38,804 nt of DNA from Folioceros fuciformis (lineage: Eukaryota): assembly GCA_049999805.1 (NCBI GenBank), contig JBNGIO010006094.1, forward strand, positions 56,503-95,306. Direction: 5' to 3'. The notes under the pieces were generated by a model. That model did not search any database. It was given only the letters and a program-made list of their open reading frames with translations, and was not told the DNA's origin. Positions 3,941 to 36,015 of this stretch are shown here, piece by piece (the stretch's first letter is position 1; each line of letters opens with the position of its first letter). The position numbers and the translations under genes were made by a program.

Positions 3941-4803
3941 GTCTTGCAAGACGACATGTTCCGCTCGATTTTGGCCAGGGAGATTGTCTTCTCTACCCAA
4001 TCTTGCATGCGGTCGTCCACGTCATGTCTTGTACATTTTGTGGGCAGATCTGTTCTTACAATTGTTGCCTCACTAATCTCGTGGCATCGGTCTTGATAGA
4101 TGGTCCATTTAGAGGGAGATCGTACCGTGGCGATGCTCTTCTCACACTTCCATGTTCTGGATGCTAGTTGCACTGCTCTTTATAATTGGCTTCTTCACCT
4201 CAAGCGATTCCAGTGTTCATAGTTTATGCTCGAGAGGGGGAAGATGAAGAAGCCATGGCGAGGAGTACTAGAGAACTTGCTACCAGAATCATAGTGCCTC
4301 GTTACGTTGGTGTGGTACATGGCGTTCCCAAGGCGTTCAACAAGCCGACTTCACTACCTCTGAAGACATGCAGATTATCTCTGCTGCAGACGGAGTTCTA
4401 CTTACGCTTCCAAAGGGTTACAATCCTGAAGCAACTGAGTGGAGTTGTTGGCAATCGGTGATGAATATGATTATTTGTCTTCCTCAGAAAAGTGGTCATT
4501 GGAATGGTAGATAGTAGATACTATACGATTTAGGTCACTCACTTAGTGGGGCTATTTGTTTTTGTTCCGTCACTAGGAGTTGTAAGTCGTTGTCGAAAGC
4601 TTACTCTTTTCTGGTCACAAGAGTGGTGTTCTTCTCCACGAGTTGTTGTACACTACAGGCTCACCGTGAGGCAGTTCGACCGACTTTAGGTGATAGTTGA
4701 ATTGAGTAAGGCTAGATTCTAAGCTTGACTACAACAAGAGTGATCTCCTTTTGTTTAATGGAGCTCTTAGATAAGAGCAACCCGCAACGTGTATGAGAGG
4801 GAG

Positions 4804-5025
4804 AGTTAGAAGAAAAAGCAGACCACATTGGTTCTGTACCACGTTGGTTAGTCTAACTAGGCCTTAGCTTTAAATGTAGATAGTTAACTAGCAAGCTAGT
4901 GAAAGGACACAACCCTTCGTAACCCTTTAAAAGCCCACCTATGAGCCTAAACCTTAATTGATTGTTTATCATTCTTAGTAAAGCATCTGCTAGATGCAAG
5001 ACGCTTCCGCATGGCATTTCTAACT
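4804..5025 (+). repeat. 3' LTR of B' with AGTTAG...CTAACT termini
   Basis: Follows the PPT; shares blocks such as AAAAGCCCACCTATGA and AAGACGCTTCCGCATG with the reverse complement of the B LTRs. Confidence 0.88.
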
Positions 5026-5300
5026 GTTTCTATTGGCGCTCCTCCCCAGACACCTATGTGTTTAAGGGACTACCTATTCAGGACATATATAGGTTAAACA
5101 TAACTTGCTTGCCACCTGCCGCACAGCACTTCGCTTGTTCCACAAGAGCTCCCCAACCCAAGTCTGCATAGGAAGCCATGTTGTGGCATGCGAGGTTAGG
5201 GCACATCAATAGATCTAAACTCATTGACATGTCCATTACCGAATGCCACAAAGAACCCCCTTTCAATGGTACAACATAAGTCGTGCAACACATGCATCTT
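5026..5300 (+). pseudogene. Remnant of another copia pol (pre-integrase region), the target of the B' insertion
   Basis: Translation ...KGLPIQDIYRL...*EAMLWHARLGHINRSKL contains the LWHxRLGH motif. Confidence 0.75.
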
Positions 5301-5598
5301 CAGTGGGGCATGAAGGGGGGAAGACATGCAACTTTGGCGGGTCTGCCATGAACGTGCAACACATGCATCTTCAGTGGGACTGTGTAAGGTGTGCAAGATG
5401 TACATCTTTCATCTTCAACATGGCAGATAGTGCATTAACTTTCACCCCCTCCTCACCTTTCATCTAGTTTTGCATGTGCCTAGGATAACTTTCACCTTTT
5501 CTCACCTTTATGTAGTTACTTCTCGACGTCCCTTTGAGGGCACGTTTTGAACGATCCAAGGGTGGTTTAGACTATCCACAAGGCACCGTAGGCATAAC

Positions 5599-5946
5599 GG
5601 TAGGCGCTAATGGTCACTGTGCTCTTAATGCGAGCACGGAAACCAAAGTTCCGACTCACCATGATTAGCATGTCCCAGCGCAGTGGCCATGCCATCGCAT
5701 AGCGCTCATCCACTCTCCCGTTTGTCTCAACGGCATTTCAAGCACCCCCTAATGTAACGTATAATATACCTATACTATATGGCTATACGTATCGTATACC
5801 TATGTGTCTACATATTCCTGAACTCATCTTTAGTTTGAAGAAGTGCATACTCTGCAAGTGTGGTATCCCGGTGCAAACTTTGAAAGTGTCGTATCCCCGT
5901 GCACTCGCGAGGCCAAGCTCCAGAGCTGGTCGTGATCGAATTTGCA
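5599..5946 (+). repeat. Left TIR of the MULE
   Basis: GGTAGGCGCTAATGGTCACTGTGCTCTTAATGCGAGCACG...GAATTTGCA is the diverged reverse complement of 9258-9622. Confidence 0.93.
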
Positions 5947-5948
5947 GA

Positions 5949-6704
5949 ATGAAGCTCAACTTGAACACGGTGGTCGCTCAATTAGAGGAGGACGAGCCTA
6001 CCCAGCTCAACTTTGTGCCTCTGCGCATCACTGTACAAGATTACGATAGAGGCTCACATGTTTATAGAGGTTGCCTGAAATGTTTCACTGGTATCTCGCC
6101 GGAAGGGTGGTGTAAAAAATGTAAGGTTGTTGTGAATGGGCAAATGCAATACCGCCTGCGACTCCTCCTTGCTGATTCTAGTTGTAAGGCATGGGGGACG
6201 GCATTCACTGCTGGTAGAGATTTTATGAGGCTCACCCCTGAAGAGTTTAGCTTGAAGGAATTACGAGGAGAAGGTACAGAAGTCTTGGACCGGTTGCTGC
6301 ACAAGAGTTTCTTGTGCCTCTTCTCCATCAAAAAGGCATCAAGGCGACACCCTTATAGCATCATCATTCTAAGGGCCGATGCAGTCTACGTTCAGGAATT
6401 GTTTCCTGACCTTGGTGTGATGAACAACAGAGCTAATAATTTGCCACAGTTCTGCACAGATGCTCAGACGCCTCTTGTGCAAACAATTTCAGCTTTTCAT
6501 GTGGACACAACTGAGTGCAGAGCCTGTGAAGACCTTGTGAGCAAACATGTGAACGAGCCTTTGTCAATTGCTGTGCCTCTTGTCGTTTGTTGTTCTTTGT
6601 CTATAGTTGTAACTATTGTGTTGGTTTCACTTCCAGCAAAGAGTCTTGCTGCAATATATCTCGTAGTTTCTCTTGCAGCAATTATAGTGTTGAAGTTGTT
6701 GTAA
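5949..6704 (+). CDS. Stand-alone RPA1/RPA70 C-terminal (DBD-C)-like zinc-ribbon OB-fold protein, putative ssDNA-binding
   Basis: YRGCLKC-x9-CKKC followed by YRLRLLLADSSCKAWGTAF...MRLTPEEF matches the Rep_fac-A_C pattern. The ATG lies just inside the TIR edge, after a TTTGCAG acceptor-like site. The domain spans ~5949-6390; the 3' tail of the ORF is uncertain. Confidence 0.8.
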   Translation: MKLNLNTVVAQLEEDEPTQLNFVPLRITVQDYDRGSHVYRGCLKCFTGISPEGWCKKCKVVVNGQMQYRLRLLLADSSCKAWGTAFTAGRDFMRLTPEEFSLKELRGEGTEVLDRLLHKSFLCLFSIKKASRRHPYSIIILRADAVYVQELFPDLGVMNNRANNLPQFCTDAQTPLVQTISAFHVDTTECRACEDLVSKHVNEPLSIAVPLVVCCSLSIVVTIVLVSLPAKSLAAIYLVVSLAAIIVLKLL

Positions 6705-6820
6705 GTGGTCAAAGACACAAGCTGTCCAACGTAAATTACAAAGTGCTTACTACAGTTGGTTTTCAATTGATGTCTTACATGTCCATATACCACAAATAGG
6801 CTTGCATTGCCTACCACATA

Positions 6821-9230
6821 TTATGGAACAATGGTGTCCACTTGTCCAGCAAGCTCCACGAAAGTGGGCTGTTTCTTCTTAGATAGCAGCTTCCAAGTAT
6901 TACTTCTTTCCCAAAAAGCAAGCTTCCTTTTCAAGCTATTATCCAAATTACTATTATCAGCTAGCAATGGAAGTGTTGGAAGCATGATGTTACCTATTGC
7001 ACTAGCTCCCATGCCCTCTAATTGTCTGATCATTTGCTGGAATAAGCTCTTCGCGTGCTGCTGAAGCAAAGGCCACTTTTCCAAAACGAATGTCAATTGC
7101 TAGTAAAAAGCTTCCAAACTTGGAGATGTCACCAATGTACCTACTGTGCACATGGTTGCTTGCTTAAGAGCGGGAATACCAATCTCACCTTGGCTACTTG
7201 TCCCCAAGCTACTATCATGTGGTAGGAAATTCTCCCACATAGAAGTGTCCTCTTCAGGACTAGGTAGAAAGCTATGTTGGAACTCAGTTTGAGCAACTGC
7301 AACTTCAGAATACCTAACAACCAGCTTTTGAGTGGGGACTACCTTATCCATGAGCAACATAACCTTGAGCTAGTGTTTGCACATGAAACCTCGTGTCCCT
7401 TGCTTACATGTACAATAACCCCAAGCAGTTCCAACACCACTTACAATATTTCTACGTGTTGTCCCATTGTCCTGACTCTTGACATAAGCAATATTTGGAG
7501 AGTCTGGAGTTGGTAAGACCACATGGTTGTCTAATATGGCTGTTGCTTTTTGGAGAGCACTCCGCACAATGTTCTCGTGCTTGGAATTTCGAAGCATGCC
7601 AACTGCCTTATACTGGGCTACATACCAAAAGTGTCTGTTAACCTCTTCGAACAAAATATGCAGCAGCCAATCCCATTGCCAATTACGAAGGGTTTTCTTG
7701 GAGAGCAAATGGGTACTTCAGATGTTTGTGATATGCTTCTATGGATGAGTTGCAGTCTTGTCCGACATGTGGAATTGTCCTAATTGCTTTAATCCACTGT
7801 AGCATGTTAAAACCCCACTGGTCTTTAAAATACTTCACAAAGCTGCTAGCAGACTCTTGGAAGGTAGCATAAAACAATTCAAGTCTTTGCATGCATGCTT
7901 GGTTTATGTCTACCCCGACATCAATGTCCATATGCATGATGTCACCTAATGATTTCATAATTGCATACCTGGTGTCGGGTGCCTTCACTGTTTCAGCAAT
8001 TGCCACAGCCAAGCCCTCCGAACATGCCATAGACACAAGAAAATCAGCACGTTACTTCCAAACACAGACTTGATGCCATTTATTTCCGCCATACAATTGT
8101 CTACCAGAAAAGCGGTCGGTTGCCAATCTGCCCTATGTAGAAGCATCCTTGCTCGTAAGGATTCCAGCCACTTTGAAATATTGGCTGCCGTAGCCTTGTT
8201 GGTAATCACCCAAGCCACAGGGATACCGTTAAAATGATCGTAAAAAACCAATAGAGTGAATAGCTGGAACTTCCACTTATTGGTGCCAAATGTAGCATCC
8301 ACACATATCACTGACTTGTGACCCCAACGCAACATAGACTGTAACTGAAAATCTGTTTGGATGTCTAACATAAAATCCTTGGCATGTAGTTCTTCTCCTG
8401 GCAAAGGGAAAAATACCTCCTCTCTGTGGACATCTATCCATAGCTTGACACTCACCTCATCATTTCCATGGAATCGCCACACCCTGGAATCCAACCCTGC
8501 CTGCAAATTTCTTATGTCTCTAGGCAGAAAAAAAACATCCCGCTCAAGGATTGCTTGCACATCACGATACTTCCTTAAAAACACCTTACACTCATGGTCA
8601 ATCAGGATCTGAAAAGCAGTTGTCTTACGGAGCAAGTTATACTTCACCCACTCCTTCTTAGTTGTGGACAGGTAGTAAAAAGCAAGGGTACAATTTGAAG
8701 CTGAATCACTCGCTAACATACATGACAATACTCTCCCGTTGAATCAATGTGCTCCCTTCAATGTAGTCTCAGTTCAGCAACCTCAGAAAACATCTCCAGC
8801 TGTGTTACAAATAACAAAAACTGGCACCCACGTTTCTTGCTTTCTCCACAGGCAATCTTGGACCGCCTGCTCCCTTTGCCTAACTTTGGCTTGTTAGTGC
8901 TGTCCACAGAAACTGCAAAATCTGGAGGAGTTTGCTTTCGGTAGCCATAAGCACAAGCAAACTTGATGTAGTACCAAGGAGTGGTAGATGAAATTCCTCT
9001 TCGCCTCACACCAGATCTGGTCCAAACATTGGCCCTTATCAATTTGGTGGGGAAGAATGTCGACTTCTCTTCGCCAGCTATGAAATCTGGGTACCTCATC
9101 CATGCTCACCATCCTGCCAATTCAATGTCTCCTTACAAAAAGGATCAAGACCTGAATTTTGCACTTGAAAAGGGCAAGGTTGAGGTAGGATGGGGGCACC
9201 CACATGCCTTCTTGGCATTGATTCATCCAT
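6821..9230 (-). pseudogene. MULE transposase with SWIM zinc finger, broken by frameshifts and stops
   Basis: CVDATFGTNK (D1), GIPVAW, FLVDNCMAE (D2), CLWHVRRAW (CxxH), NSSIEAYH (E), SWIM CTC..CKH; N-terminal PDFIAGEE and KRGCQF; split over at least six ORF pieces. Start position approximate. Confidence 0.9.
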
Positions 9231-9257
9231 AAACTCTACATGATTGTCTTCTCTGGT

Positions 9258-9622
9258 TGCAAATTTGGTCACAACAAGCTCTGGACTTGGCCTCCCGAGT
9301 ACGCGGGGATACGGCCCGCGAGTACGCGGGGATACGGCACTTTCAGAGTTTGCACCGGGATACCATACTTTCAGAGTATGCACTTCTTCAAACTAAAGAC
9401 GGATTCAAGAATACGTAGACAGATAGGTATACGGTACGTATAGCTATACAATATAGGTATATAATACGTTACATTAGGGGGTGCACGAAATGCCATCGAG
9501 ACGAACGGGAGAGTGGATGAGCGCGATGGCATGGCGGCTGCGCTGTGACATGCTAACCATGGTGAGTCGGCACTTTGGTTTTCGTGCTCGCATTAAGAGC
9601 ACAGGGACCATTAGCGCCTGCC
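9258..9622 (-). repeat. Right TIR of the MULE
   Basis: Reverse complement of the left TIR; contains a 23-nt-period duplication CGAGTACGCGGGGATACGGC (9296-9315, 9319-9338) absent from the left TIR. Confidence 0.93.
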
Positions 9623-9853
9623 TGCCTGGCAGAACGTGGACGTTTTGGTGGTTAACGTGCCCACACAGGCAACACCTCAGTAGTGAGAAGCATGGGAGCT
9701 GTTTCTGCGATCGGCGAGCAACTGCTTCACAAAGCAAAATCGGACTTCGCTACAGGTTCGATAACTCGCCTTCAAAATCGGCAGCATGATGTCCCCAATG
9801 TGGTCAGCAAGCAAAAAAGGGCAAAGGCACACCATACAACACTGCGACTATAA

Positions 9854-12800
9854 CTACACCTGTCCCTGGAGGTAACTAGATCGTAAGCGCTCGCGAGTTG
9901 CTACCGACCGCACAAGTTGCCTCCATCGTAGAACCGCCTGCTCTTTTAGCCTCACACGTAGGACATGCGCCCGTAGCCTCTCTTCCTCGCAATATGCCTG
10001 CAAGGTCAAGGACGTTTAAGAACATCAAGCAGTGCTGAAAAGGTGGTGCATAAGGACGACAAAAAAGCCAAAGGTTTCCAATTCAACAGGCGGATACTTA
10101 CTTCAAGAAGGGTTGCCTGGAACTCTTTGCACACTACAATACCATCAAACTTAGGCAGAGACCGGCCCTTCTGTACTTCAAACCCAACAAAAGCAGGGGC
10201 ATAGTCCACTCCGAGCCGTCTCGCCACTGGTACAAGACGAGGATATCGGAGATGGACAGTCCCTGCAGGAAGACACTTTTCTGACCACACATCAATTTGC
10301 CCTCGATCGTTCTGCAGATAATAGACATTCGAGACTAAGTCAGCGAGCACAATGTGCCTACAAATCCAGTAGTAAACACAAGGAAACACATGATCACATG
10401 CATGAAAATCCTAACCTTGGGCACCACTCCATCTGCTGCTGGGGGTGGACTCCAACACTCAGTTTGCCATCTACCGAACAGTGATACAGTACAATCAACC
10501 ATCTTACTCTTCTCCTCTTTCCCAGCTAAATGGGACCTAGCCACCACCTGCTTGCAGACAGGTGTCAATTTTCTTGGTTCCTTGGTATCTTTCGTTAACC
10601 ACGACATCCAAAGATGAAAGTGGAGGGAACAAGACCTTGTAAGGTGCTTCACCAGATACCACACTCCGGCACTCTCTAAGCCAATGTTCAGCAGTGTGCA
10701 ATGTCTTTACACAAGACCGTGGATAAACAGGTTGTCCAGCACAGTAACCCAGTACTGGACCTTTTGGGTAAAGTGCCTGGTACTTTGTAAGCCATTTTTC
10801 CAACACATAAAGATGATGGTTCTTGTACACCTGGTCAACTTAACGTGAGGTACCATAAAGCAAGCAAGAGTAAGGTGACTCCGTGACAAGGCAGGACAGT
10901 GATACCTGCTGTCTGGTTGGTAACGGTTCCATGAATACCCTCGTCTCCAGCTCAATATCCTCCATGACACCACGATCTGCCAAATCTCCCCTGCAGTCCA
11001 CCTTATGCAATTCTCCACATGCAGACTGACACTTCGGTGGTTGCTGGCAGGGACTGATACAATTTATAAGCTGAGGTCCAGCTGAAACATAATTTGTACC
11101 AGAAAGCCCGTTTGCCTTCGTGGAGAGGGTGCCATCTGGACTTGCGTTGACACCTGTGCTCTGATCCGAACCAGACCTCGTTCTCGCGGCCCATGACACC
11201 TGCTGATTAACAAAGCAGCTAGTGGCTGCTGCTTCAAGACACTTTAGTGGGCGAAAGCTGACATCCAACCATTTTTCATCCACTCGCAGAGGCATAACCA
11301 GCGACCACAATGACACATACCTGCAAGCTATAGAGAGAGTGAGCAAAAGGCAGGCATGTCACAGATTGCTAATGAGCGTGATAACCTGTCAAAAACCCAA
11401 GCTAGATTACCTCTTAGTCAGATCCTTAGCTCCAAAGCCAGCAAAAGCAACCACATATCGAAGAGGTAGACGGCACGCCACGGCAGCTGCCCTGACCTCA
11501 TTAATGCCATCAACTATCCCTTTCCCCGCATCGACATGTACCCATCTCCCTGCAACCCCTTCACTGCCGCAAAAAATCNNNNNNNNNNNNNNNNNNNNNN
11601 NNNNNNNNNNNNNNNNNNNNNNNNNNNNNNNNNNNNNNNNNNNNNNNNNNNNNNNNNNNNNNNNNNNNNNNNNNNNNNAGATATGCTAGGGCCAGGCCCT
11701 TGCTTCTGTGGTTCACCCACAAGAGGGGGCGATTCACGTGCTGCCTTCGACAGCTCAGCAACAGCAGCTGTTGCGCTCATGGCCATGGCCAAATCACGCT
11801 CTAACTCAAGATGTCCTTTTGTATTAGCATGATCTCTTCCAGGCTGACGTTTTGCTAAAGAAGAACTGGCAACGTTTTCAAAATGAGATTGAAACCCCTG
11901 GACACCTGTTTCATCTTTAGATATGGCCTTTCCAAGAGTATTCGGAGCATGGATTCTAACGCATTGCTCACTCAATCTCCGAACCTTTCTGTGTCCACCG
12001 CGTTTCGACTGCCTACAAATGCCATGACTCTGTTCACCGTTTGGTGCCAAGCTAGACTGAAATAGATGATCTATCTCAGTTGGCTCAGGTTCACTGTCAC
12101 CCAAAGAGCATTCCGAGGAAAACTGAGAAAGGCTTGCCAGTTGCGCATGTGTGTCATTGATCACGGGGCCAAGACTTCTTGGGTCACACTTCCGTGGTTC
12201 CCAGTCTAGAGTAGCATCTAGGAAGTCCGCATCAGGCTTCAAAGGCCCTACATCTAAGACACACACATACCTGACTGATTCCAAACCAGTGTCAGATGCC
12301 ATAAATTCAGATGGGGGAAACCAAATGAAGTAGCCGGACAGAAGTAATACTGGATGTAAAGTGACTCAGCTTGCTCATATGACTAGAGCAGCACCTGGTG
12401 GTAAATCCTAGGCAGCGAAACAGTGCAACAGATAGCGCAGTAACCTGCATGGACTCGTAACGTCAACAACGTTTATCAAGAGAATGCCCGTACAAGTTTT
12501 CGAGATGAAACTTGAGAAAAAACACAAACAGCCCATCAGAACAGTTTGGCCATAGTAGAATGTCATGAGACTTAGTCTGCACGCGATGCTACTCACAGAC
12601 GCAAGATGAAAAAAAAAGGTGTCAGCCTGTCCGTGTAACTATATCAACGACAAATGTCTTTGAGCCGAAGGAGAGTACCTCCTCTGCAGTGCCAGCTCGT
12701 TCGGCGAAGGACCTTCTCAACTTTGAAATGAAACCTTCCTTGCTGTCCAACTTACTCTTGTCTGCTGAGAGAACCTGGAAATTGTTCCGAAACTGGACAC

Positions 12801-13919: not shown

Positions 13920-15890
13920 AACTTGACTTTCTCTTTGAACACATGATTAGAAGCTCCGCTGTCTAGAAACCACTTCTGACAGGCTTTCGTAGAAGAAGTG
14001 AGACATGCCACCAGTAGACCAGGGGTAGAAGGGGTAGAAGCCCTAACTGTATGAGTTTCTGTTTGCCTGCCTCTTGCACTCTCATCTTTGACTTTCTTCC
14101 TATAGTCCTCTATCCAATGACCTGACTTCCCACAGTAGTTGTAGTTTCCAGGCTTAGAAGTAGAGTTGGAGGATAACTAACCAGAGGGTGACGAGGATGA
14201 CATAGCTTGTCCTCTACCCTTGCCATAACCACCTCTACCTTTCCCCCTACCTCTACCACGTCTTCTCCCCCTCCCTAAAAACAAGGTTGTATCACTCTGT
14301 TTATGTGGAGCAAGAGACGAGGAAGAACTACCCTTCATTTGTTTTCTATTGGCTTCAAATTGCAGTAAGGCTCCTACAACCTTTTGTACAATAAGGTTAG
14401 AAGTTGCTAGGGTAGATGTTGTGGCAGGTGTGACTGTTGCTGATGTTTGCAGACTTGAACTAAAGTATTCATAGCTGGAAGAAAGAGAAAGTAACAGTTG
14501 TACTGCTGCTCTTGATTTTGAGATGATCACTCCACAGGAAGTAAGTCTGGCTCTCAAAGCCCTGAACTTGGAAACGTGACTCTCAACAAAGTCACTCTCT
14601 CTCATGCGAAGTGTCTGATACTGCAGTGTGGCTGCCTCTACTACCATATCCTTAGTGTCATAAGTCTCTGATAGCAATGACCAGATCTCGTTTGAAGTCT
14701 GCGTCATTCTTATATGAGGTATCAAATCTTGAGACACGGAAGCCACAAGTATATTTCTTGCCTTCCTATCCTTAGAATTCCATTCTAACTCATCCTTTTG
14801 TGTCCACTTGTGCACCGTGCCGCTAGGTGTAGGGGGACCAGAGGGCTGGCCAACAACTTTCTTTGGTACGGACCCATCAACAACGTCCATCAGAAGCTTC
14901 TCATCAAGGACGCAACGCACCCTAAAATTCCAGGCATCGAAATTATGTGAGGTTAGACGATCCTTCTCCTGCAGTCTTTCAGATCCAGAGTTAGGATTAG
15001 ATGACCCCATGATGCCTATAAATCACAACTTTTGACTCAAAGAGGAACAACTGATAGGCGAGCAAACTGCTCCCTGAGACCGTCTATGTCCTATTCTTGC
15101 TTAGCTATCGTCATGAGATCAATCGACCTTTGGCTCTCAAGTCGATCATGTCTTGATTGCAGATTGTCAGCATGAGTAGTGTACTCCAACAACATGCTTC
15201 TCACATTCAAAATGAAATTCAAAATAGCATCACGCTCTAAAAATTTCTCCACGTATGGCTTAGCATTACTAGAATGTAGAAGACTTGAGGACGATAAACA
15301 AGAGTGCTAATCTCTGTTGGCAGATTTTCTCCTTTGAAATTGCTCAAATTGTGAGTCTGAATCGAGGTCTTCTTGTGCAATTACTTGTGAGTTAACAAGA
15401 ACTCTGAGGAATTGAGCCCGCTTTGCTTGCTCTACTGGGGACACTCCTTTCTTGAAAACTTTCCTTTCGAATTCAGTCTGCGCTGAATGTCTGGATTTTC
15501 CCCTCTCAAAATTTGGCGAGGATTGCCTGAGGGAATTCCTTCAAGGCATCCTCGCTTCCCCTAGAGACTAGGATTTCAACAACGCAGAGGATGTGTGCAC
15601 TCCCATTATAGAAACACAAAATGGCTAGAGTCGAACAAGAACAAACAAAAGTACAATCCACAACGTGGCTCTGATACCATAATACATTTGTGGAGATTTG
15701 ACCAAGAGATCGCACGCACGGCTAGACTCACAAAAGAACTGATCACATTACGATGGCGGCACAGAAGGATATCTGATCCAAGTCCCATGAACGGTTACAA
15801 CCGTTATTTAATTGTCGTTTAGGGTTTCTCATAAATAACTAACTCTTGGTATATAACAATGAACAACTAACTTATCCTTATTTCTCAACA
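13920..15890 (-). mobile_element. Truncated copia D (5' LTR, PBS, gag, start of protease)
   Basis: PBS TGGTATCAGAGCC (15679-15667); candidate LTR 15689-15890; protease WFLDSGASNH at ~13945-13975; no integrase, RT or 3' LTR. Confidence 0.87.
14080..15010 (-). pseudogene. gag: gag of copia D
   Basis: LQEKDRLTSHNFDAW, MRESDFVESHVSKFR, RG-rich tract; stop at 14177; knuckle decayed to YNYCGKSGHWIEDY. Confidence 0.88.
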
Positions 15891-18223
15891 ATAAGAAACG
15901 ACCCCTAGATGAGGCAGGTCATGGACTTAGGCTAGTAAATAAGGGAGTTGTGACTCAGCAACGGTCGGGGAAGGTGAAGCACCGTCGTGGAAGGGACAAC
16001 TGGTGGTGGAACTTCGGCAGGTAGTTGAAGCTCAATGACGGTCGCGGAAGGGGCAACCGGTAGTGGAAGCTGGTGGCAGTCGTAGAAACGAGACGGCCGT
16101 CGGCGGATGAAAACCCTAAAAGGGTAAGGTCAAACGGAGAAGCAGGTCCATGACTGAGGTAGTGAGAGCCCCTACCGGTAGAGGAGAGACGACGCCGGTA
16201 GTGGGAAGCTCTACCCCGGTTGGGGAACAACAAGGGTTGCGGAATCAACAACCTTGGTTGTTGAAACCCCTACCTACACCAGGAGGACTGGAATGGAAAT
16301 AACTGCAGCCAGAGTGACAGGGGGCACTCCAGCATCCTAGGAGNNNNNNNNNNNNNNNNNNNNNNNNNNNNNNNNNNNNNNNNNNNNNNNNNNNNNNNNN
16401 NNNNNNNNNNNNNNNNNNNNNNNNNNNNNNNNNNNNNNNNNNNTGGTTGCATCTTAAAATAGTATTTATATAAGATTTGGCAAGATGCTATCTTGATCTG
16501 GTGCCACCTGCCATTAAGGATATCTTTTCAAAGTTGACTGTGTTTAGAACTAGACTTTATGGTGGGTTGTGGCTCCCGCTCTTGGAAACTCTGTACAAAG
16601 GGGCCTGTTGGTGCCTCTCTGATTAGCAAATGTTGGAGACACTTCCCGGTTGAGATCCCCTACGCCGTCCATGGCTGGATTGGAGATGTCTGAGTGGGCA
16701 GTGAGTGCGAGACGCTCCTATGGGTGGTCAAGAGCTTTTGCTCCATAGCTGGTAGTGAGGGGGACAAATCTGCCTGTTGCGTAGAGTGGAAGGAGAGCCT
16801 CTCCTTCCCTTATTCCCTGAACGGCAAGTTGTGTTCTGCGGTGAGTGGTGAGGGGGATGAATCCACCAGCTGCGTGGAGTGGAGGGAGAGTTTCTCCTTC
16901 CCTTATTCCCTGAACTATTGGCTACATTTTGAATCTGTAGTTGAAGAGCGTGTGTGAGAAGAGGAGGAGCTGAAGTGTGGATGAAGGAGTGAATGGAGAA
17001 GGAGAAGAAGGCTGAAGGAGTAAGTGACTGGAGAAGGAGAAAGAGGCTGAAGGAGTGAGAGAAGAGAGGAGTGAGTGAGGACTGATTGTGGTCCGTAGCT
17101 GAGGAGAGGGGGACGAATCCACCTGTTGCGTGGAGTGGAGGGAGAGTTTCTCTTTCCCTTATTCCCTGACCATCAATTGCGTTTTGAATTTGGTGAGGAA
17201 GAGAGAGCTGAGAGACTTAGGAGAACCTTGGAAGATTGCTGTAAGATTGGTAGAGAACTAAAGAATCGCTGAGAAATTGTTGGGAGAGACTGCTGAAGCT
17301 TGAACGAGATTGCTCGGGGATTTCTGAGGAATTCTTCGACGTTTGTGGAGAACGGTTGAAGAGTGTGGAAGCCTGTAAGGAGATGTGAAGGATCACTGAG
17401 GAATTGCTAAGGTTGCTGGAGAACTGAAAAAACGGCTGAGAAGTTGCTTGAGGAAGAGTGCTGAAGATTGGATGCGAATCTTGGAGAATTTCTGAGAGAG
17501 TCTGGAGTGTTTGTGAGCGGCTGTTGGAGATTGTTGAAGCTTGTGAGGGATTGTGAGGAGTGGTGAAGGATTATGAAGGATTCGTTGGAGATTGGTGGAC
17601 ATTGCTGGAGATTGAAGGCCCTTGAGGGGCAGGCCTGTGAGGAATAGCTGTGAACCAGAGCTCTTGTGTGTCTTGCGTGTGAGGAGAGTGTTGCATGTGT
17701 ATGTGGGGAGGTGTGGCTGATCCGCGAGGTCTTGTTCCCCAAGGATCAGCACTTGCATGTGTGGAAAGCATTGAATAAGCCTAGATCTGTGAGTCTGGAA
17801 GACCCTGGGCAGAAACCCACGGTAGCGCATGCGCCGGAATTTAATTAGTTAGGGTTTTGGGTGGGACCCACCACAGTCGTGGAACCCACTACCGATAGTG
17901 GAACCTTGTACCGGTTGTCGAGAAGTCAGTAGTTGTAGAGGCCCCTACCTCGGTGGCGGAATGAGTCTTGGAGCTGTAGAGTTGCGTTCGGGGTAGCTAA
18001 GCCAGCTGAGGGGTAGTAGTGGCTAACCTTGTAGGAAGTTGAATTGGTAGGTAGTAGGGTCGTAGTGGTAGACCAGGACTGATCTATGTAAGAGTTAGTT
18101 TTAAGAAGAAGCCTGTGTTACTTGGCACAAATCATTCCCTTGGGAGCGAATCCCACGGCTACAACGACATAGAGGGTTTGTGTGGACCTCGCGGTACCCC
18201 CGAGTACAATATTTTCCCTCACA
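15891..18223 (+). repeat. 5' LTR of Ty3 element G (left end uncertain)
   Basis: Ends CA three bases before the PBS; purine-rich with internal repeats; 3' end homologous to the solo LTR at 36016-37342. Confidence 0.7.
16344..16443. other. Assembly gap (100 N)
   Basis: Run of N. Confidence 1.
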
Positions 18224-20365: not shown

Positions 20366-23300
20366 GCAGAGCGTCTGATCAGGGAGCTTTTGGAGATATT
20401 TTTAACGAAGCTGAATTTGAACCTGAGGCTAAACAACAACCTAGAAGAATGGGAGACGCAGCCTCAACCTACAATTATGGGGGTAATGAATCCTTCAAGG
20501 AGAAGGATAGGTTCAATGGCAACGACTTTGACATTTGGCTGATCCGGATGGAGGGCATTCTCGAAATGAGGGGCCTGCTGAAACATGCAACCGGAGCAGT
20601 AGTGAAACCAGACGCAGGATCTTCGGGAGAAGAAGAATGGTTAGCTAAGGACAGCGGAGCCAAGTACCTTATTCGCAGTGGCCTGACAACTGAAATGTTG
20701 AGGTAGACAGCAGGGGTACAAACTTCAGCCGAAATCATGGACCGTCTAAAGGAACTCTACGCAGGCCAAAACATGGTCAGTGCAATGACAGCTTTGAGAA
20801 ATTTCCAGAACTTGAGAATGAAGGACTGGGACTCAGTGGAGAAGCACGTGAGTACCTTTAGGACCCTAGCCTCTCGGCTTCAGGGTGCTTCACAAATTGC
20901 CATCAGGGATGAAGAGATGGTGATGAGGCTCCTTCTATTGCTTCCTGAAACTTGGTCACACTTTGTGACTTCTCATACAGCTGCTCAGACACAAGCTACA
21001 TTGTTAGCAAAGAAGCAAGGTGTGGAAATGCCAGAGATGAGGTTTTCACAGTTGGTTAGTTCTATGCTGCAAGAAGAAGCAAGCAGAAATAATCACAAGA
21101 AAGCAGGGAAACAACAGGCCCTGTACACCTCAAACAAAGGACGAGGAGGCAAGAAATTATTTTCCAAAGGAGATGGTGGAAATCCTTCCAAGGGAGGTAG
21201 CTCAGGCGGATCCTCATCAGGGAAGAAGACAAAGAAACAAGGAACCTGCAATTGGTGCAAGTTACCTGGACATTGGGAAAAGGAGTGTCGCAAAAAACAG
21301 GCTGGAGTTCCTCGCAAGGAGGGGACCAGCGCTGAGACAAATGTTGTGGTTAAAAAGTCTAATACCCCATCAGCCCTTACAGTTGGGATTAGGGAATTTG
21401 CAAGTCCATTACTGCTTCCCACCTGCCTTTCTTCCAAAGCTAATCTGAAACCAATAGACGAATGGTATTTGGATACGGGTGCAACAGCACACATCTGCTT
21501 TGATAGAAATGCATTCAAAACATATAAGTCTGTTTCAGATAAGTATGTTTACCTTGGGGACGACAGGTCTCTAGTCGCACCTGGGCGAGGCACAGTTGAG
21601 TTACTAGTTCCTACAGGGATTACACTCATGTTGTTAGAAGTCTACTATGTGCCTGAAATGACTCGAAACCTGATTTCAGTTAGAAGATTGAATGCCGACA
21701 ATAATAGTCATGTCGTATTCACAAGGACAGATTGCTGTATCATAGATGCCATTGACCCTAGAAAGGTCCTTGCACATGGGTCCTCTAATCACCATCTGTT
21801 CCGTCTTCATTTGCACAGTGGATCAGTAGAGTCCCACATGACACAAGATGTCTCACTTGCGTCTGCACAACAAACAACAAAGTCAAAATTGTGGCATTCA
21901 CGTTTGGGTCACCCCCACATGGCAAAGTTACAAAAATTGGCTGTGAGTGACTTGTATCAAGATGGACCCATTGGCCCTTTGACTGGCATACCTTTTTGTG
22001 AGGCTTGTGTGCTGTCAAAGAAACACCAAGCTGATTTCAAGAACAAGGCGCCTTATCGTGCACATGATCTCCTTGAGCTAGTACATACTGACCTGTGTGG
22101 ACCCTTATCTCAAGAGTCCATAGGAGGTGGACGTTATTTCCTAACTTTTACAGATGACAAGAGCAGATTTGTCACTACCTATATCCTGAAAAACAAAAGC
22201 GACTGTTTCTCCTACTTCAAGGAATACATAAAGTTCGCTGAGCGTTGGACAGGACAACAGCTCAAGACTCTAAGATATGATAATGGCGGGGAATTTACCT
22301 CTAATGAATTTCAGCAATTCTGTAAAGATGAAGGTATAGGACGTCAACTTACAGTCGTATACACTCCCCAGCAGAATGGAGTGGCAGAGCGATTGAATCT
22401 TACATTGCAGGAGATGGTTTCCCCCTTGTTACATGACGCTCACTTGCCCCTACCTTACTGGGCTGAGGCTTTGATGACTTCAACCTTCCTACTAAATAGG
22501 TTGCCCACCACTGCTGTTGAAGATAAGACACCCTATGAGGCCTTTACCGGCAAGAAGCCCTCAATTCAACACTTGAGGATTTTCGGCTGTTTAGCATATG
22601 CCTTCATTCCTAAGCAGAAACGCGATAAGCTGTCATCCAAGGCACGCAAGCTACTAATGTTGGGTTATACGGAGGGGATTAAAGCTTATAAGCTCTATGA
22701 TGCCCCCACGAATAGAGTCATCTATGCTCGGAGTGTTACCTTCGACGAAACAAGGACTTGGGCTTCAGTGGGAGCACATCCTTCTATTCCTGAACTTGAA
22801 GAAAATGAGGACATTTATGAATTCTCTCATTATGACCTGACAGATCATGGCACACAGGCTCCACCTGTTGAAAACATTCCACCTGTTGAGGAAGATGCTC
22901 ATGCAGGAGGGGAAAATCAGGCAGTGTTAGATGACGAGCAATCTGCACATGACATTCCACCTGTAATGCCCCTGCCCGATATACAGGATCACATTTCTCA
23001 ACCAGATCACACATTCATTGATGAAACAGCTGACGGTGATGCTGAAGATGAAGCTGACCAGAATGAGGCATCTGAGGACTTGCATGATACTCTTCCTGCT
23101 GAACCTGCACACGAGTTTGAGCGAGAGCCTATTAGACGTTATCCTACATGTGAACGTCGACTTCTTGACTACTATCATGCACCAGATTTCAAGATTACCT
23201 CTTCTTATGTAAAGGCTTATGCTGCGACAATGTCAAATCCTATAGAGCCACAGTCTTATGAGGAAGCCCTCAACAGACCTGATCACAAGGAATGGAGAAA

Positions 23301-24843
23301 GGCAATCCAGTCATAATATGATTCCCTTATCGAGAACGGAACTTGGGAATCAGCAAAGTTGCCCAAGGGCAGAAAACTGGTGTCATGTAAATGGGTTTTT
23401 AAACTGAAGGTTAAGGCAGATGGATCATTTGACAGATACAAAGCTAGATTGGTCGCTAGAGGTTTCACAAAAATTCCAGGTTTAGATTACCTCGAAACTT
23501 TCGCTCCCGTAGTCAAGCATGCAACTTTTCGTACCATGTGTGCAATAGCTGCTGACCTGGACTATGAACTTAGGATGTTTGATGTGAAGACTGCTTTCTT
23601 GCATGGAATCCTTGATACAGAGATCTACATGCAGCAACCAAAGGGTTTTGAAGTCAAAGGAAAGGAGGATTATGCATGCAAGCTAATTAAGTGTCTATAT
23701 GGACTTAAACAATCAGCTATGAAATGGAATGCTAGACTAGATGAGGAACTTCTCATACTAGGTTTTGCTAAGAGTAAAGCAGATAACAGTTTGTACATAT
23801 ACATCAAAGGAGATGTTATATGTTACTTAGCTGTTTATGTGGACGACCTTATACTCGCAAGCAACAACCTGGACTTTATATCTTCAGTTACCAACCTGCT
23901 GGCAAAGAAATTTAAAATGACAGACCTTGGTCCTCTACAAAGCTGTTTAGGAATACATATACAGCGAAATAGAGAGAAGAGAATTCTCACCATGACACAA
24001 CCTCGATACATATTGGAAAGTGCAGAGCAGTTGGGTCTGAAAGATGCCAAGGCTGCTGCTACACCACTTCCAAGTGGCCTTAAGCTAAGCAAGGACATGT
24101 CACCTGTCACACAGTCAGAGAAAAATGACATGAGGAATGTACCTTACAGGCAGGCTGTAGGGAAGCTAATTTATGCAGCAAACTTCACATGGCCTGATGT
24201 AGCATATTCAACAAGTGCTTTATCACAGTATCTGGAAAACCCCGGGCAAACTCACTGGACGTGTGTGAAAAGAGCATTTCGATATCTCAAAGGCACTTAC
24301 AACAGTGGGATTGTGTATGCTTATAAGGATGAAGTTTCATCATATCTTCATGTCTATACGGACTCCGATTATGCAGGCGACATTGATAGCAGAAGGTCAG
24401 TATCGGGATGTGTGATCACTTATGCAGGTGGACCAATTTGCTGGTCCAGCAAGAAACAACCAACAGTAGCACTTTCAAGTACTGAAGCAGAGTATAGGGT
24501 ACTTACAGCTGCTGCCAAAGAAGTTATTTGGTTGAAGTTGTTGTTTTCTGAGCTTGGAATTTGCTTGCCAACCTGCATCGTTATGAAAACTGATAATCAA
24601 GGAAGCATGTCCTTAGCAGAGCATCCTGTGTTTTACTCAAGAACCAAGCATGTGGCTGTTGAGTATCACTGGATAAGAGAACTTCTTGCAGCAGGCACAA
24701 TCAGCTTAGAATATGTGCCCACTCAGGAAAACCCTGCGGACATGTTCACAAAAGCACTAGGCAGAGAACTGCACGAAAGACATGTGAAGTTTTTAGGTCT
24801 GGGTGACTCTTCAGAGTCCCTAGGCACTATCAAGTCTCTCTAA
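20362..24843 (+). pseudogene. gag-pol: copia E gag-pol, single frame with two premature stops
   Basis: CNWCKLPGHWEKEC, WYLDTGATAH, LWHSRLGH, HTDLCGP, DNGGEF, QQNGVAER, YVDDL, NPADMFTK; TAG at 20704 and TAA at 23314. Confidence 0.95.
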
Positions 24844-27907: not shown

Positions 27908-30900
27908 TCACCAAATGAGTGATTTGTGTAGCGTCACATAGCTACTACAATCTACAAGTCCAAGCCCTTCTTTGTGGAAACAGTGTTTAAACTTGGGCAA
28001 AGACTTCGTCAGAACATTGGCCGTATTATCATCTGTTGACACATATTGTATCTTCACTAAGCCCCTCTCAGCAGCATCTCTAACATAGTGATGTTGAATC
28101 TCGATGTGCTTAGTACGGGCGTGAAACACAGGGTTGGAAACCAAGGCGATGGCTGACATATGATCACAGTTAATAAGCGTAGGTCCTGCTTGTTGCATAC
28201 CCAAGCCTGTGCTTCCTTTCCCACTCTGCCTCCTTAGTGGCTTCTGTGAGAGCTTTGTACTCCGATTCCGTGGAAGACAAAGATATAGAGGCTTGTTTCC
28301 TACAAGACCAATTCACAACAGTGGAGCCGGCAAGGAAGCAATAAGCCGATAGACTCTTTCGGTGTCTGCATCGGAAGCCCAATCTGCATCGACATAGCAA
28401 GTCAGTTGTAGAATCCTTTTGCCACTGGGCTTGCAGCAGAGACCATAGTTAGGAGTACCCTTGAGGTACCGCATAATTCTTTTAAGTGCTACCCAGTGAT
28501 CCCTTTCTGGGTTTCAGAGAATTGCGCAACTACATTAACAGTATTAGATATGTCTGGTCTTGTCTAATTGCTTAGAAACATGAGAGTGCCAACCGCCATA
28601 CGATAAGGCACACTCTCCTTTTCCTTTTTCTCTTCATCAGACTGTGGACAAGAAGATGAGGAGAGCTTAACACCAAGAGCACCTGGAGTGACAGCTGCTC
28701 GTGCATTCTCCAAGTTGAACCTCTTGAGCATCCCGGCTACGTATCGACCTTGATGAAGGTAGATTGCTCCAGTGGACCTGTGTTTGTGTACGTGCATTCC
28801 AAGGATGTATTTAACTTGACCCAGATCTTTCATTTCAAACTCCTTGCTGAGATCAGCCTTGATCTGGTTAACCAGCTCCACATTATTACCGGGGATAACT
28901 AAGTCATCCACGTATAATGCTATTAAAAACAAGTGAGCTGTCCTTTTGTAGCACATACAGGTTAGTATCTGCTTCGCTTTGCACGAAGCCAATCTTCTTA
29001 AGATAAGAGTCAATTCTCTTGTACCACAGTCGAGGACTTTGTTTGAGCCCATAAATATAACAAAGGAGTTTACACACCTTTTGCGGAAATCTCTTATCCT
29101 GATAATCCTCAGGTTGATCCATGTAGATCTCTTTTTCCAAGTGACCATAGAGGAAGGCTATACAAACGTCTAGCTGATAGATGTCCAAGTTAAGTTCTGC
29201 ACATAAAGCAAGGAGCATCCTTATTGAAGCTGCTTTGACGACAGGTGAGTAGACTTGATCGATCAAGCCTTGATAGTCGACTCCTTCTTTTTGACTATAG
29301 CCCTTGGCCACTAGCCTCGCTTTATAACATATGCGGGGCTCAACCTCTTGAAACTTTGTTTTGAGTACCCACTTGCACTTGACAGTTGTCCTTCTTGGGG
29401 GTAGATCCACTAACGTCCAAGTGTTATTCTTGACTAAAGAGTTATACTCATCGTCAACAGCCAGTTTCCACTTGTTAGCCTCAGGTCTCACATATGCTTC
29501 ATGAAGTGTGAGAGGATCTCCCTCTGAAACAACAGAACTCCTAGCAAAAGAATAGGCATCTGGATCAAGATCTGTATACCCAGCTTGATTGAACTCCAAG
29601 TGAAATGGCTTCTCATGCCAAAGGTGTCTTGGGAGTCACAGACCAGAGGAGAGTAGCGGACCAGAGGAGAGAATGCTAGCCTCATCGAAAGTGACAGTCC
29701 GAGCATAAACAGGAGTCCGAGTAGCCAGGTCAAGCAACTTGTACGCCTTGCAATCCTCACCATAACCCACAAACACCAGCTTCCGTGCTCGAGAAGAAAG
29801 TTTATCATAGAGCGGGGAGAGGACATAGGCATAAGCAGGAGAGCCAAAGATGCGCAAATGGGTGATCAAAGGCTTGTACCAATGCCAGCACTCAAAAGGA
29901 GTACGGCCCACCACAGACTTGGTAAGTAACCTGTTCTTGATGTAGGCTGCCGTAGAGACGGCCTCAGCCCAGAAAGACTTAGGCAAGCGAGACTGGGCCA
30001 ACATAGCCCGCGCCATGGCCATAAGGTTGCCATTGGCCTTCTTAGCAATGCCATTGTGAGCAGAAGTGTAGGGAACAACGAATTGTCTCAAGATCCCACG
30101 CTCCTCACAATAGTCTTTGAATTGATGGTTGTTGAGTTCTCCCGCATTGTCGGATCTAATGCACCGTAGCTTGCATCCAGTGTGCAACTCGGCCATAGAA
30201 ACAAAAGATGAGAACTCAGCAAAGGAGTCACTCTTGAGACGAAGGGGGTACGCAAAGGAGTACCGGGAATAATCCTCCACTATTGTCATAAAATGGTGTG
30301 CTCCGCCTAAAGAAGTAACAGGGAGAGGTCCACACAAGTCTATGTGAACTATCTCCAAAGGCTGAGAAGCCCTATGAGCAGGAAGACCAGAGTAGGGAGA
30401 GCTCCGCTGCTTGGCGAGCACACACGCTCCACAAAGAGGTGGTGTCTTGGCCAAGGAGGGCAACTTATCTCGATATAAGTCCTGCTGTGTCATGGCAAGG
30501 AGCTTGGCAGGATTGAGGTGCCCAAGTCGACAGTGCCAGAGTTGAGCATTCCCAGATGGAGGGAGCCCATGTGGTGAGGCAACCTTAGAAGATGCTACCA
30601 CGGCTGCAAGTGTGGTGGTCACAGGGGTGCCAGTGAAGATGTAGAGATCACTTTGGGGCTGCCCTCTAGCTACAACGTGCCTTGGTTGAGAGGAACGATA
30701 GAGGAAACAATCCTCATGTCCAAACTCCAGCCGAAAAGCTCCATCAAGCAGAAGTTGGCGAACGAATATCAAGTTCTTAGCCATCTGCGGGACGTGGAGC
30801 ACACTAGTTAACACAAGGGAGGAACCATCCTCGAATGTGAATGTCACGGAACCAACTCCAGCAATAGCAAGACCAGAGTAATCGCCCAACAACAAAAAGC

Positions 30901-32146
30901 GTTGAGTGTCAGTTGTCGTCGTGTAGGAAGTAAACATGTGCTTGGAGCTGCAGATATGGGCAGTGGCCGCGGAGTCTAGCAACCAGGAGGTCCTGAACTC
31001 TGAAGCTACCAAGCACACGGTTAAAGCAATCTCAGACTTGGATGGGTTCTTGGCCTTGGAGACGACAGCTGTATTGGCAGTCTTGATCTTACGCTTAGCC
31101 TCACCGACTTGCTTCTTCCTGCACTCCTGCTCCCAATGGCCGGGTGACTGACACCAGTTGCACGTTCCTTGATGTTTCGTAGGCTTGGAGGAAGAAAAGG
31201 CAGAAGAAGCAGCCTTTGTTGTGACGGAGTTGATGTTTCTCCGGGGGTTATGCCCTTGCTCTTGATGTTGATTTTGTGACCGTCCTCGAGTCACAAACAT
31301 CACTCGGTCTCCACCATGTTTAGATGTGCCGGAGTTGAAGTGGGATGCCTCCTCCTGAAGGAGTGCGCCAGCTAGCTCGAACACAGTTAGGGAGGATTGT
31401 CCACCAGCCGCCACTGCTCGTTGTGAAGCCGGACCGACTGGTTTTGCGAAGAGACGAACAACTAGTAACTAGCCGGAAGGCTAGCTAGACGCTGGACAGC
31501 AGCATCAAATTCAGACATAGTAGTCCNNNNNNNNNNNNNNNNNNNNNNNNNNNNNNNNNNNNNNNNNNNNNNNNNNNNNNNNNNNNNNNNNNNNNNNNNN
31601 NNNNNNNNNNNNNNNNNNNNNNNNNNGCTAGACGCTGGACAGCAGCATCAAATTCAGACATAGTAGTCCCGAGTGCAACCAATTGTGCCGGAAGGTACCT
31701 GAATCGGCTCACGTGATGGGCAATACTATCACCTTGTTGCATCCGAAGAGTGTAAAACTCTTGTCGGACGGTGACTAAGGTCATCACATTCATTGACTAA
31801 TAGATGTCATTGATCTGCTTCCAGGCCTTTGCTGAAGTAGTCGCACCATCGGTGTGATGCAAGATGGTTTCGTCAAGGCCAGAAACCAGCATTTGCAAGG
31901 CTTGACGATCTAGCTTGAGCCACGCATCAACCGCCGACTGAGGTGCAATGGGCTTAGGGGAAACACCCTCCACCAGTGGGAGAAGATCGCGCGTGTTGAG
32001 AGGTGTCTTCATCCGTCAAGACCAAATCTCATATTTGGTCCCGTTAAACCTATCTCTCTCTTTGAAATCAGTATAGACGCCATAACATTAATTACAAGAG
32101 CCAGAGATGGCGGAGGTGGTGGTAGTGGTGAAGTTCCTCCTGACAT
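27908..32146 (-). pseudogene. gag-pol: copia B gag-pol with frameshifts and stops
   Basis: CNWCQSPGHWEQEC, WLLDSAATAH, LWHCRLGH, HIDLCGP, SDNAGEL, YKARLVAKGYSQ, LYVDDL, HARTKHIEI. Confidence 0.94.
31527..31626. other. Assembly gap (100 N), probably spurious
   Basis: The 43 bp before the gap (31484-31526) are repeated directly after it (31627-31669). Confidence 0.95.
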
Positions 32147-35767: not shown

Positions 35768-36015
35768 ACCTCCCACTTAAAGGCCAATTTACCTTCATAG
35801 GAGAGTGGTCTACGTCATGCCCATGAGTGTTCGAGCTTGTGCGAACTGCTTTATAGAGAGCCCCTTGGTGAGAAATATCTGTAGGGTTCTGACTGGTGTG
35901 AACTTTGACAAGCTGTACCCTCTTGTCTTCCAACACCTCTCAAATGAAGTGATACTTCACTTCCACATGTTTGGCCTTTGCATGAAACACTGGATTCTTT
36001 GCCAATTGGATAGCA

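Follow-up and report, generated by a model that had tools for sequence, protein, structure and literature searches.

Can a cut-and-paste DNA transposon keep a relative of the RPA large subunit as a regular gene of its own? This question is raised by a stretch of 38,804 nucleotides of Folioceros fuciformis DNA (the window: contig JBNGIO010006094.1, positions 56,503 to 95,306 of the forward strand), in which a Mutator-like element (MULE) occupies positions 5599-9622. Long terminal inverted repeats (TIRs) enclose a broken MULE transposase gene and, facing it from the opposite end, an open reading frame (ORF) with remote homology to DBD-C, the zinc-ribbon OB domain of RPA70. With a probability of roughly 0.55, we read the region as an old, inactivated copy of a two-gene MULE whose DBD-C-type segment became the regular, TIR-driven second gene of a lineage. 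We read the OB gene as a lineage-restricted passenger or second gene, which is unusual for a MULE.

Two genes between long inverted repeats

The element consists of the following parts.

5591-5599, no strand: candidate left target-site duplication (GGCATAACG), uncertain
5599-5946, plus strand: left TIR, ~348 bp (inverted-repeat arms, alignment, contig starts at 5598)
5949-6701, plus strand: OB ORF, 251 codons, stop 6702-6704 (ORF call, Pfam, phmmer, PDB profile, contigs)
6705-6820, no strand: spacer between the convergent stops, 116 nt (ORF coordinates)
6821-9229, minus strand: MULE transposase pseudogene (tblastn), start ATG 9229 or 9099
9258-9622, minus strand: right TIR, ~365 bp, with a 23-bp tandem duplication at 9296-9338 (inverted-repeat arms, alignment)
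9628-9636, no strand: candidate right target-site duplication (GGCAGAACG)

An earlier reading made from the letters alone (the sequence-only reading) had proposed TIRs of ~350 bp, and an inverted-repeat search coupled to pairwise alignment recovered them with ~89% mean identity. They are composed of arms of 219 nt (5691-5909/9317-9535, 89%) and 100 nt (5599-5698/9523-9622, 92%) and of two inner arms of 28 nt each, which extend the repeats to 5946 and 9258. The pairwise alignment contains one 5-nt and one 22-nt indel, the larger gap being the tandem duplication in the right arm. The 22-mer at the TIR tip has two matches, both at the element ends, and none of 100 shuffles had any.

Contigs from sequencing runs of the same organism (X1 to X4) agree with both termini: contigs of other copies start matching at 5598 and are preceded by unlike sequence, and a transcript contig of the right flank starts at 9625. 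A MULE is expected to have a target-site duplication of 9-11 bp, and the MULE groups in a table of PMC6446971 have 8-11 bp. The sole match of k-1 of k letters (k 8-11) between the two flanks is a candidate 9-bp duplication at 5591-5599 and 9628-9636 (8 of 9 identical), which overlaps the first TIR base and would place the termini 1-5 nt away from the ends of the TIR homology.

The two reading frames converge within the element. Homology between the TIR arms ends 3 nt before ATG 5949 on the left and 29 nt outside ATG 9229 on the right, and the stop codons at 6702-6704 and 6821-6823 lie 116 nt apart. The second gene starts just inside the TIR opposite the transposase and faces it, and the convergent, MuDR-like arrangement of two inward genes put forward by the sequence-only reading is borne out. 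Membership in the MULEs is indicated by the long TIRs and by a transposase domain above the Pfam gathering score.

A stand-alone remote relative of RPA70 DBD-C

Two features within the OB ORF carry its assignment.

5949-6422, plus strand: RPA70 DBD-C-like zinc-ribbon OB region, residues 1-158 (remote homology)
6072-6122, plus strand: CxxC-x9-CxxC zinc-ribbon motif (translation, four-sequence and HMMER alignments)

The OB ORF points inward, is devoid of introns and exon scars and lies in a frame of 333 codons from stop to stop. An exhaustive phmmer search of 1.84 billion representatives returned three relatives of the OB piece (P0001, P0002 and P0003), all hypothetical proteins of Riccia sorocarpa (E 7.9e-5, 1.9e-4 and 3.0e-4; 31% identity each over 111-150 residues). 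Among these, P0001 belongs clearly to the Pfam family Rep_fac-A_C (E 1.6e-12, 47.9 bits). When a profile of the four sequences was compared with the PDB, the top five of the 25 matches listed were DBD-C domains of RPA70/Rfa1, namely 4gnx_C (E 6.7e-6), 1l1o_C and 9mj5_C (both 1.1e-4), 8rk2_A (2.2e-4) and 6i52_C (6.4e-4), followed in places 6-8 by archaeal replication factor A. A language-model feature search of a protein atlas pointed to the same family, its best results being ~170-aa Rep_fac-A_C clusters of Streptophyta (0.96 and 0.95). Less sensitive approaches returned little: phmmer with the single OB piece gave no PDB match at E <= 10, a word-based homologue search with a 147-aa OB piece among proteins of near length gave no relatives, and the same kind of search with the four-sequence alignment returned P0001 alone.

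The cysteines C42, C45, C55 and C58 form a CxxC-x9-CxxC zinc ribbon, which by sequence would supply all four ligands and which the HMMER alignment matches to the ribbon cysteines of human RPA70 DBD-C (1l1o_C) and of 4gnx_C; C42 and C55 are invariant among the four OB sequences. Homology to P0002 covers residues 34-183 of the query and runs past the domain. To judge from these comparisons, the first ~190 residues of the left gene are probably a strongly diverged, stand-alone relative of RPA70 DBD-C, and the zinc-ribbon ORF described by the sequence-only reading stands as remote sequence homology.

The ORF also appears to be old. Since no library protein is more than 31% identical to it, it is unlikely to have been captured recently from a canonical RPA1 exon, and near-identity to such an exon, which the sequence-only reading had named as fatal to its own proposal, was not found for canonical RPA1. 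Classification as a Pack-MULE was rejected: a transposase remnant is present, and the same ceiling of 31% applies.

The downstream limit of the protein is less clear-cut. Matches by tblastn extend over 5955-6512, homology to the relatives and to another genomic copy ends near 6512-6517, and the last ~65 codons, which end in a hydrophobic stretch, may lie outside the real product. About 45 strongly hydrophobic residues close the ORF (6560-6701), either as a real tail anchor or as read-through of T/G-rich DNA. P0001 is also hydrophobic near its C-terminus (residues ~265-295), and it has in common with P0002 a FAKY motif close to the C-terminus that the OB ORF is devoid of.

A transposase that has decayed

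Opposite the OB ORF, a MULE transposase is coded in broken pieces from 9229 to 6821 on the minus strand. Its main landmarks and lesions are as follows.

7100-7102, minus strand: second in-frame stop, TAG (translation, alignment to P0005)
7373-7414, minus strand: SWIM-type CxCx(n)CxH string, then TAG 7370-7372 (translation, alignment to P0004-P0006)
7708, minus strand: 2-nt deletion private to this copy, frame -1 to -2; extra AC in other contigs (X1 depth 30.1/30.1, 2 contigs; X2 13.6/50.4)
7985-8743, minus strand: longest open piece, with the MULE (DDE) domain (Pfam; 40-44% identity to fern and sweetgum proteins)
7987, minus strand: 1-nt deletion private to this copy, frame -2 to -1; extra C in other contigs (X1 depth 31.2/48.1, 3 contigs)
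8720, minus strand: 1-nt deletion private to this copy, frame -3 to -2; extra C in other contigs (X1 depth 41.3/55.5, 4 contigs)

The 252-codon piece at 7985-8743 matches the Pfam family MULE (PF10551) with E 4.8e-10 and 40.2 bits against a cut-off of 27.6, as well as ZSWIM1-3_RNaseH-like with E 3.7e-8. The closest relatives are two proteins of the fern Adiantum nelumboides (835-844 aa, 40-41% identity), one of Liquidambar (sweetgum; 44%) and three of the liverwort Riccia sorocarpa (34-36%). A Pfam scan of four of these six (P0004-P0007) found MULE in all four and SWIM in both fern proteins, below the cut-off, and in the Liquidambar protein, the SWIM domain of P0004-P0006 lying at residues 585-617. 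Pfam SWIM itself was not reported on the piece from the window; the CxCx(n)CxH string CTCKQGTRGFMCKH aligns where the full-length relatives carry the domain. Together these results confirm the MULE/SWIM transposase of the sequence-only reading, the SWIM string being found at the expected place. In a seven-sequence alignment the second catalytic D (D214) and a CxWH string are invariant, and the column of the first D holds D or H among the relatives; a candidate for the catalytic E lies in the next frame piece, to judge from a known motif. The N-terminal piece (8758-9105) matched no Pfam family at E <= 1, and no FAR1/WRKY-type DNA-binding domain is claimed for it.

Homology to the relatives of 835-844 aa spans 9102 to 6749, with successive pieces in frames -3, -2, -1 and -2 (tblastn). 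These pieces are colinear and abutting on the fern proteins P0004 and P0005 (residues 48-145, 177-401, 398-497, 495-607 and 741-815; tblastn and blastp), and the frame changes are therefore frameshifts and not introns. The extra letters found in other copies at 8720, 7987 and 7708 are exactly the changes that restore the frame, as worked out by hand from the ORF coordinates. Because part of the contig depth at 8720 and 7987 lacks the insertion, the frameshifts belong to the locus and are not assembly errors. One TAG follows directly after the H of the SWIM string and the other falls inside the region that still aligns to P0005. The start is ambiguous, as ATG 9229 requires a 2-nt change at 9100-9101 and ATG 9099 is already in the homologous frame. 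With at least five disabling lesions, namely the frame changes near 8720, 7987 and 7708 and two in-frame stops, one of them in the SWIM finger, the transposase of this copy is dead and the copy is not an autonomous element with an intact transposase. This pseudogene state was absent from the sequence-only reading.

Other copies in the same organism

Of the words sampled from the element, fractions of 0.69 and 0.64 occur in two DNA runs. On a 6-kb stretch, 250 and 226 contig pieces were found at 80% likeness, with all identity classes populated (70/60/61/59 and 55/54/64/53); here and below, contig depth is not a measure of copy number. Two contigs represent rearranged derivatives. The first, of bisulfite-like type, joins 6781 to 8340 and is a deletion derivative linking the OB side with the transposase, and the second joins 5891 to 9341 on opposite strands and is a TIR-to-TIR derivative. 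The element family has thus moved and decayed in this genome, where several diverged copies exist.

The OB ORF takes part in this diversity, and the idea that it might occur only in this copy, another outcome that the sequence-only reading had declared fatal, did not hold. Three contigs of run X1 differ from the window within the ORF at 6103, 6179 and 6196, and a contig of 605 nt covers 5959-6517 with 75 differences, its homology ending abruptly at both limits. The 6 gap letters of this contig amount to a net length difference of 6, a multiple of three, and preservation of the frame is possible but not proven. A contig of 514 nt, identical to the window, covers the TIR and the start of the ORF (5620-6133), and the TIR-ORF junction is therefore no misassembly.

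Two of the runs have properties of their own. In run X3, 186 C>T and 348 G>A changes were counted on 4600-10600, 14 of 164 contigs reached at least 95% identity, and the printed contigs read the cytosines at 6141-6190 in the OB ORF as T; the run looks like a bisulfite-converted library. Run X4, which is guessed to be RNA, has no contig on 6007-9624 and is uninformative on expression. In a 2737-nt contig of this run (depth 292), the terminal 220 nt match the outer TIR (5598-5817) with 28 differences; beyond 5598 the contig is unlike the window, and a TIR copy seems to reside inside an abundant transcript elsewhere in the genome.

Is the OB ORF a regular gene of the element?

Several results weigh against our reading of the OB ORF as the second gene of a MULE lineage. 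Some concern the domain itself. The Pfam scan of the ORF reported Rep_fac-A_C (PF08646) only, with E 0.0017 and 18.6 bits, below the cut-off of 28.5; by Pfam's own rule the ORF would be a remote relative of the family and not a member. AlphaFold gave a pLDDT of 31.7 from the single sequence and, at low confidence, a pLDDT of 51.4 and a pTM of 0.48 from the four-row alignment. Foldseek found no PDB match to this low-confidence model at E <= 0.001. Eight of its top nine rows were RPA DBD-C, Teb1 OB-C or archaeal RPA, but with E of at least 0.024 and TM of 0.23-0.30, and a wide VIA-align search gave no chain at Z >= 5, RPA70 chains scoring 3.8-4.2 among unrelated ties. The sequence-only reading had proposed an AlphaFold-Foldseek check of this kind. 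The assignment to RPA DBD-C can be regarded as well-supported remote homology, which draws on sequence profiles and not on a confident fold.

Others concern the locus. At the lesion density of the transposase, 753 nt would stay open by chance with a probability of ~0.15. Only four variant sites were printed for the OB ORF (I49 synonymous, E52G, S77 synonymous and G83A, worked out by hand); G83A restores a residue present in two of the Riccia relatives. Among the contigs listed, none but the locus's own spans both TIR and ORF, and the other contigs of the OB region could represent a parent gene that has no TIRs rather than copies of the MULE.

The remaining ones come from other genomes. By locus tag, the OB proteins of Riccia (012152, 022471 and 005664) are not adjacent to those of its MULE transposases that a length-limited search returned (023065, 024316 and 020146). 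No OB relative was returned from the fern or angiosperm proteomes that hold the closest transposases (exhaustive phmmer). Nor was any found in 38 related metagenomic MULE loci (341 kb), whose transposases are 24-44% identical and 18 of which extend at least 3 kb downstream: with four OB proteins as tblastn queries the lowest E was 0.64, and an hmmsearch of 2411 ORFs with the OB profile had no match at E <= 10. A metagenome scan with a single OB protein produced 305 pattern matches and no relative.

The best of these metagenomic loci (L009:1-8842) has terminal inverted repeats of 130 nt (99%) at the very ends of its contig. It codes for a MULE transposase 44% identical to that of the window and, on the opposite side, for two convergent ORFs (335 and 589 codons), neither of which has a Pfam match. 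It looks like a complete 8.8-kb element and may represent a related MULE with two or three genes whose accessory set differs.

The main rival, which we consider possible but less likely, is that the ORF is a functionless passenger: a segment transduplicated from an RPA1-like gene of the host or of a Helitron, which a single MULE sub-lineage acquired on one occasion, in the manner of Pack-MULEs and many autonomous MULEs, and which has drifted since. Its absence from the 38 loci, the non-negligible chance of an open frame and the abrupt ends of the 605-nt contig homology at 5959 and 6517 would all be expected of such a fragment, as would the presence of just one of RPA70's OB domains. Streptophyta commonly have Rep_fac-A_C proteins that are small and stand alone (clusters of 77 and 53 members). 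MULEs capture many kinds of domain, and a survey of active plant TIR elements counted 335 Pfam domains seen once each among non-transposase proteins (PMC12973397). What speaks for a regular gene instead is the ATG placed exactly at the inner TIR edge and directed inward, where a promoter-driven second gene would be expected, together with the absence of introns or exon scars and the presence of several diverged variants. The 31% protein-level kinship to another plant lineage extends over 111-150 residues and includes a stretch past the OB domain, and long coding constraint is therefore to be assumed somewhere in the history of the ORF.

It is improbable that two unrelated things merely lie side by side, with the ORF of a host gene or of another element, such as a Helitron remnant, inserted into or recombined with the MULE. 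Contig depth is lower at 6610-7212 than on both sides, which would suit a composite locus were depth a proxy for copy number, and the Riccia relatives are annotated as ordinary hypothetical genes. Yet TIR homology runs unbroken up to 3 nt before the ATG, the 514-nt window-identical contig crosses the TIR and the ORF start, and homology to the transposase reaches 6749, less than 50 nt from the end of the ORF, which leaves no room for a foreign flank. None of the seven ORF pieces scanned (E <= 1) matched a Helitron-type family; they gave MULE-type and weak unrelated Pfam matches, and the TIRs themselves set the element apart from a Helitron, which would have a Rep/helicase gene and no TIRs.

That there is no gene at all, only a chance open frame with spurious weak similarity, is very unlikely: the direct Pfam match is sub-threshold, the first word-based search was empty and single-sequence folding failed, but the frame is 333 codons long from stop to stop, three whole-library matches have E <= 3e-4, the cysteine ribbon is conserved and four lines of evidence, two of them built on the Riccia matches, agree on the domain family.

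Origin and possible role of the second gene

If the OB ORF is the regular second gene of a two-gene MULE lineage, an RPA1-like segment coding for DBD-C would have been taken up long ago from a host gene or a Helitron. It would then have become the regular second gene, transcribed from its TIR like mudrB in MuDR, and its product may have served as a nucleic-acid-binding or RPA-docking accessory factor in excision-gap repair or reinsertion. Linkage of the two genes throughout the family, transcription from the TIRs and a role in transposition are what we infer from the layout and the homology. Within RPA, DBD-C contacts single-stranded DNA and forms the trimer core with RPA32 and RPA14. Because of these two properties, a DBD-C-like protein on its own could cover the single strands of the target or of the excision gap or, alternatively, dock on host RPA32/14 and bring the transpososome to sites of repair or replication.

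A stronger version holds that a MULE lineage of early-diverging land plants recruited a stand-alone DBD-C-like zinc-ribbon OB protein as a required cofactor in a mudrB-like role. It is doubtful. In this version the protein would either cover single-stranded DNA at the target or excision gap or dock into the host RPA32-RPA14 pair in the place of RPA70, and the recruitment would be a case of convergence with the RPA-like genes of rolling-circle Helitrons. A dedicated helper is a reasonable hypothesis. The broken transposase of this copy weighs against it, and the step of the sequence-only reading to a possible MULE lineage with a dedicated helper binding single-stranded DNA finds no support here: the 38 metagenomic loci are devoid of the OB gene, the Riccia genes have non-adjacent locus tags and the frame may be open by chance.

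Comparison with known systems

The closest model is MuDR of maize, whose mudrA/mudrB layout is described in the accessible parts of PMC6446971 and PMC12973397. In both elements the TIRs are long and a gene begins at the inner edge of each, the two genes running towards each other; the first of the pair codes for a MULE DDE transposase. Unlike in MuDR, the second gene here codes for an RPA70 DBD-C-like zinc-ribbon OB protein, the transposase is closer to MULE and SWIM proteins of fern, sweetgum and liverwort (34-44%), and the copy is dead. MURB is needed for reinsertion and has recently been shown to bind the N-terminus of MURA (PMC12973397). As MURB serves reinsertion and binds the transposase, the helper role proposed above would parallel it by analogy.

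The RPA-like proteins of plant Helitrons are likewise transposon-borne relatives of the RPA large subunit (PMC6431247, PMC9033089 and PMC7385966, each in part), whereas the carrier here is a cut-and-paste DDE element with TIRs and the domain is of the DBD-C type only. In the available portions of these reviews, RPA-like genes are assigned to Helitrons only. Compared with DBD-C of RPA70/Rfa1 itself (PF08646; 1l1o_C, 4gnx_C, 6i52_C), the profile match covers ~100 residues including the ribbon and the strands and helices that follow; the protein of the element differs in standing alone without DBD-F, DBD-A and DBD-B, in its CxxC-x9-CxxC ribbon, and in having ~30 further conserved residues and a hydrophobic tail after the domain. 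The Riccia proteins P0001, P0002 and P0003 resemble it in an N-terminal OB region followed by a variable tail, and P0002 also in an ISAF motif past the domain, but identity is 28-31% and the cysteine ribbon has been partly lost in P0001-P0003 in two cases.

Non-transposase coding sequence between TIRs is also known from Pack-MULEs and from MULE accessory genes (VANB/VANC, Ulp1 protease, PMD, MutB; PMC6446971 and PMC12973397, from partial texts). The extra MULE ORFs named in the accessible part of PMC6446971 are mudrB, mutB and vanB/vanC. The main text of this survey of MULEs across eukaryotes contains no occurrence of 'RPA', 'replication' or 'OB-fold', and the main text of a 2025 atlas of active plant TIR elements (PMC12973397) contains neither 'RPA' nor 'OB-fold'. 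No description of a MULE with an RPA-type gene was found in the literature searched, some candidates having been judged from title or abstract.

MULE accessory proteins are few, poorly understood and lineage-specific. An RPA-type second gene, if real, would provide a biochemically tractable hypothesis for helper action at the gap or target and, next to the Helitrons, would be a second case in which eukaryotic DNA transposons independently recruited RPA-like domains. A mere passenger would be one more domain among many picked up by MULEs, of local value for the annotation of this genome and that of Riccia.

Surroundings of the element

Immediately to the right of the element, a contig of run X4 (depth 152) matches 9625-9996, 10101-10311 and 10416-10549 with 0 differences and skips two 104-nt pieces with CT..AC ends, that is, GT..AG introns on the minus strand. 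The minus strand of 9625-10549 is a spliced host gene, and 3 nt separate the end of the contig from the final base of the right TIR. On the left, the summed depth of X1 contigs rises to 637 at 4801-5001, compared with 12.7 in the single-copy right flank, and many loose contig ends fall at 4826-5025, marking a very abundant repeat ~600 bp from the MULE.

The window is rich in transposons. Frames of Ty1/copia-type gag-pol, named from translated motifs, were found at 1-1181, 14177-15022, 20707-24843, 28564-31468 and 37416-38216, including a near-continuous copia-type frame of 869 + 508 codons at 20707-24843 and one of 610 codons on the minus strand at 29636-31468. A run of N at ~11580-11680, visible as X in two overlapping frames, is a scaffold gap. 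GC skew is strong and unlike the rest of the window in two places, with values of +0.24 and +0.43 in 16001-18000 and of -0.35 and -0.30 in 36001-38000.

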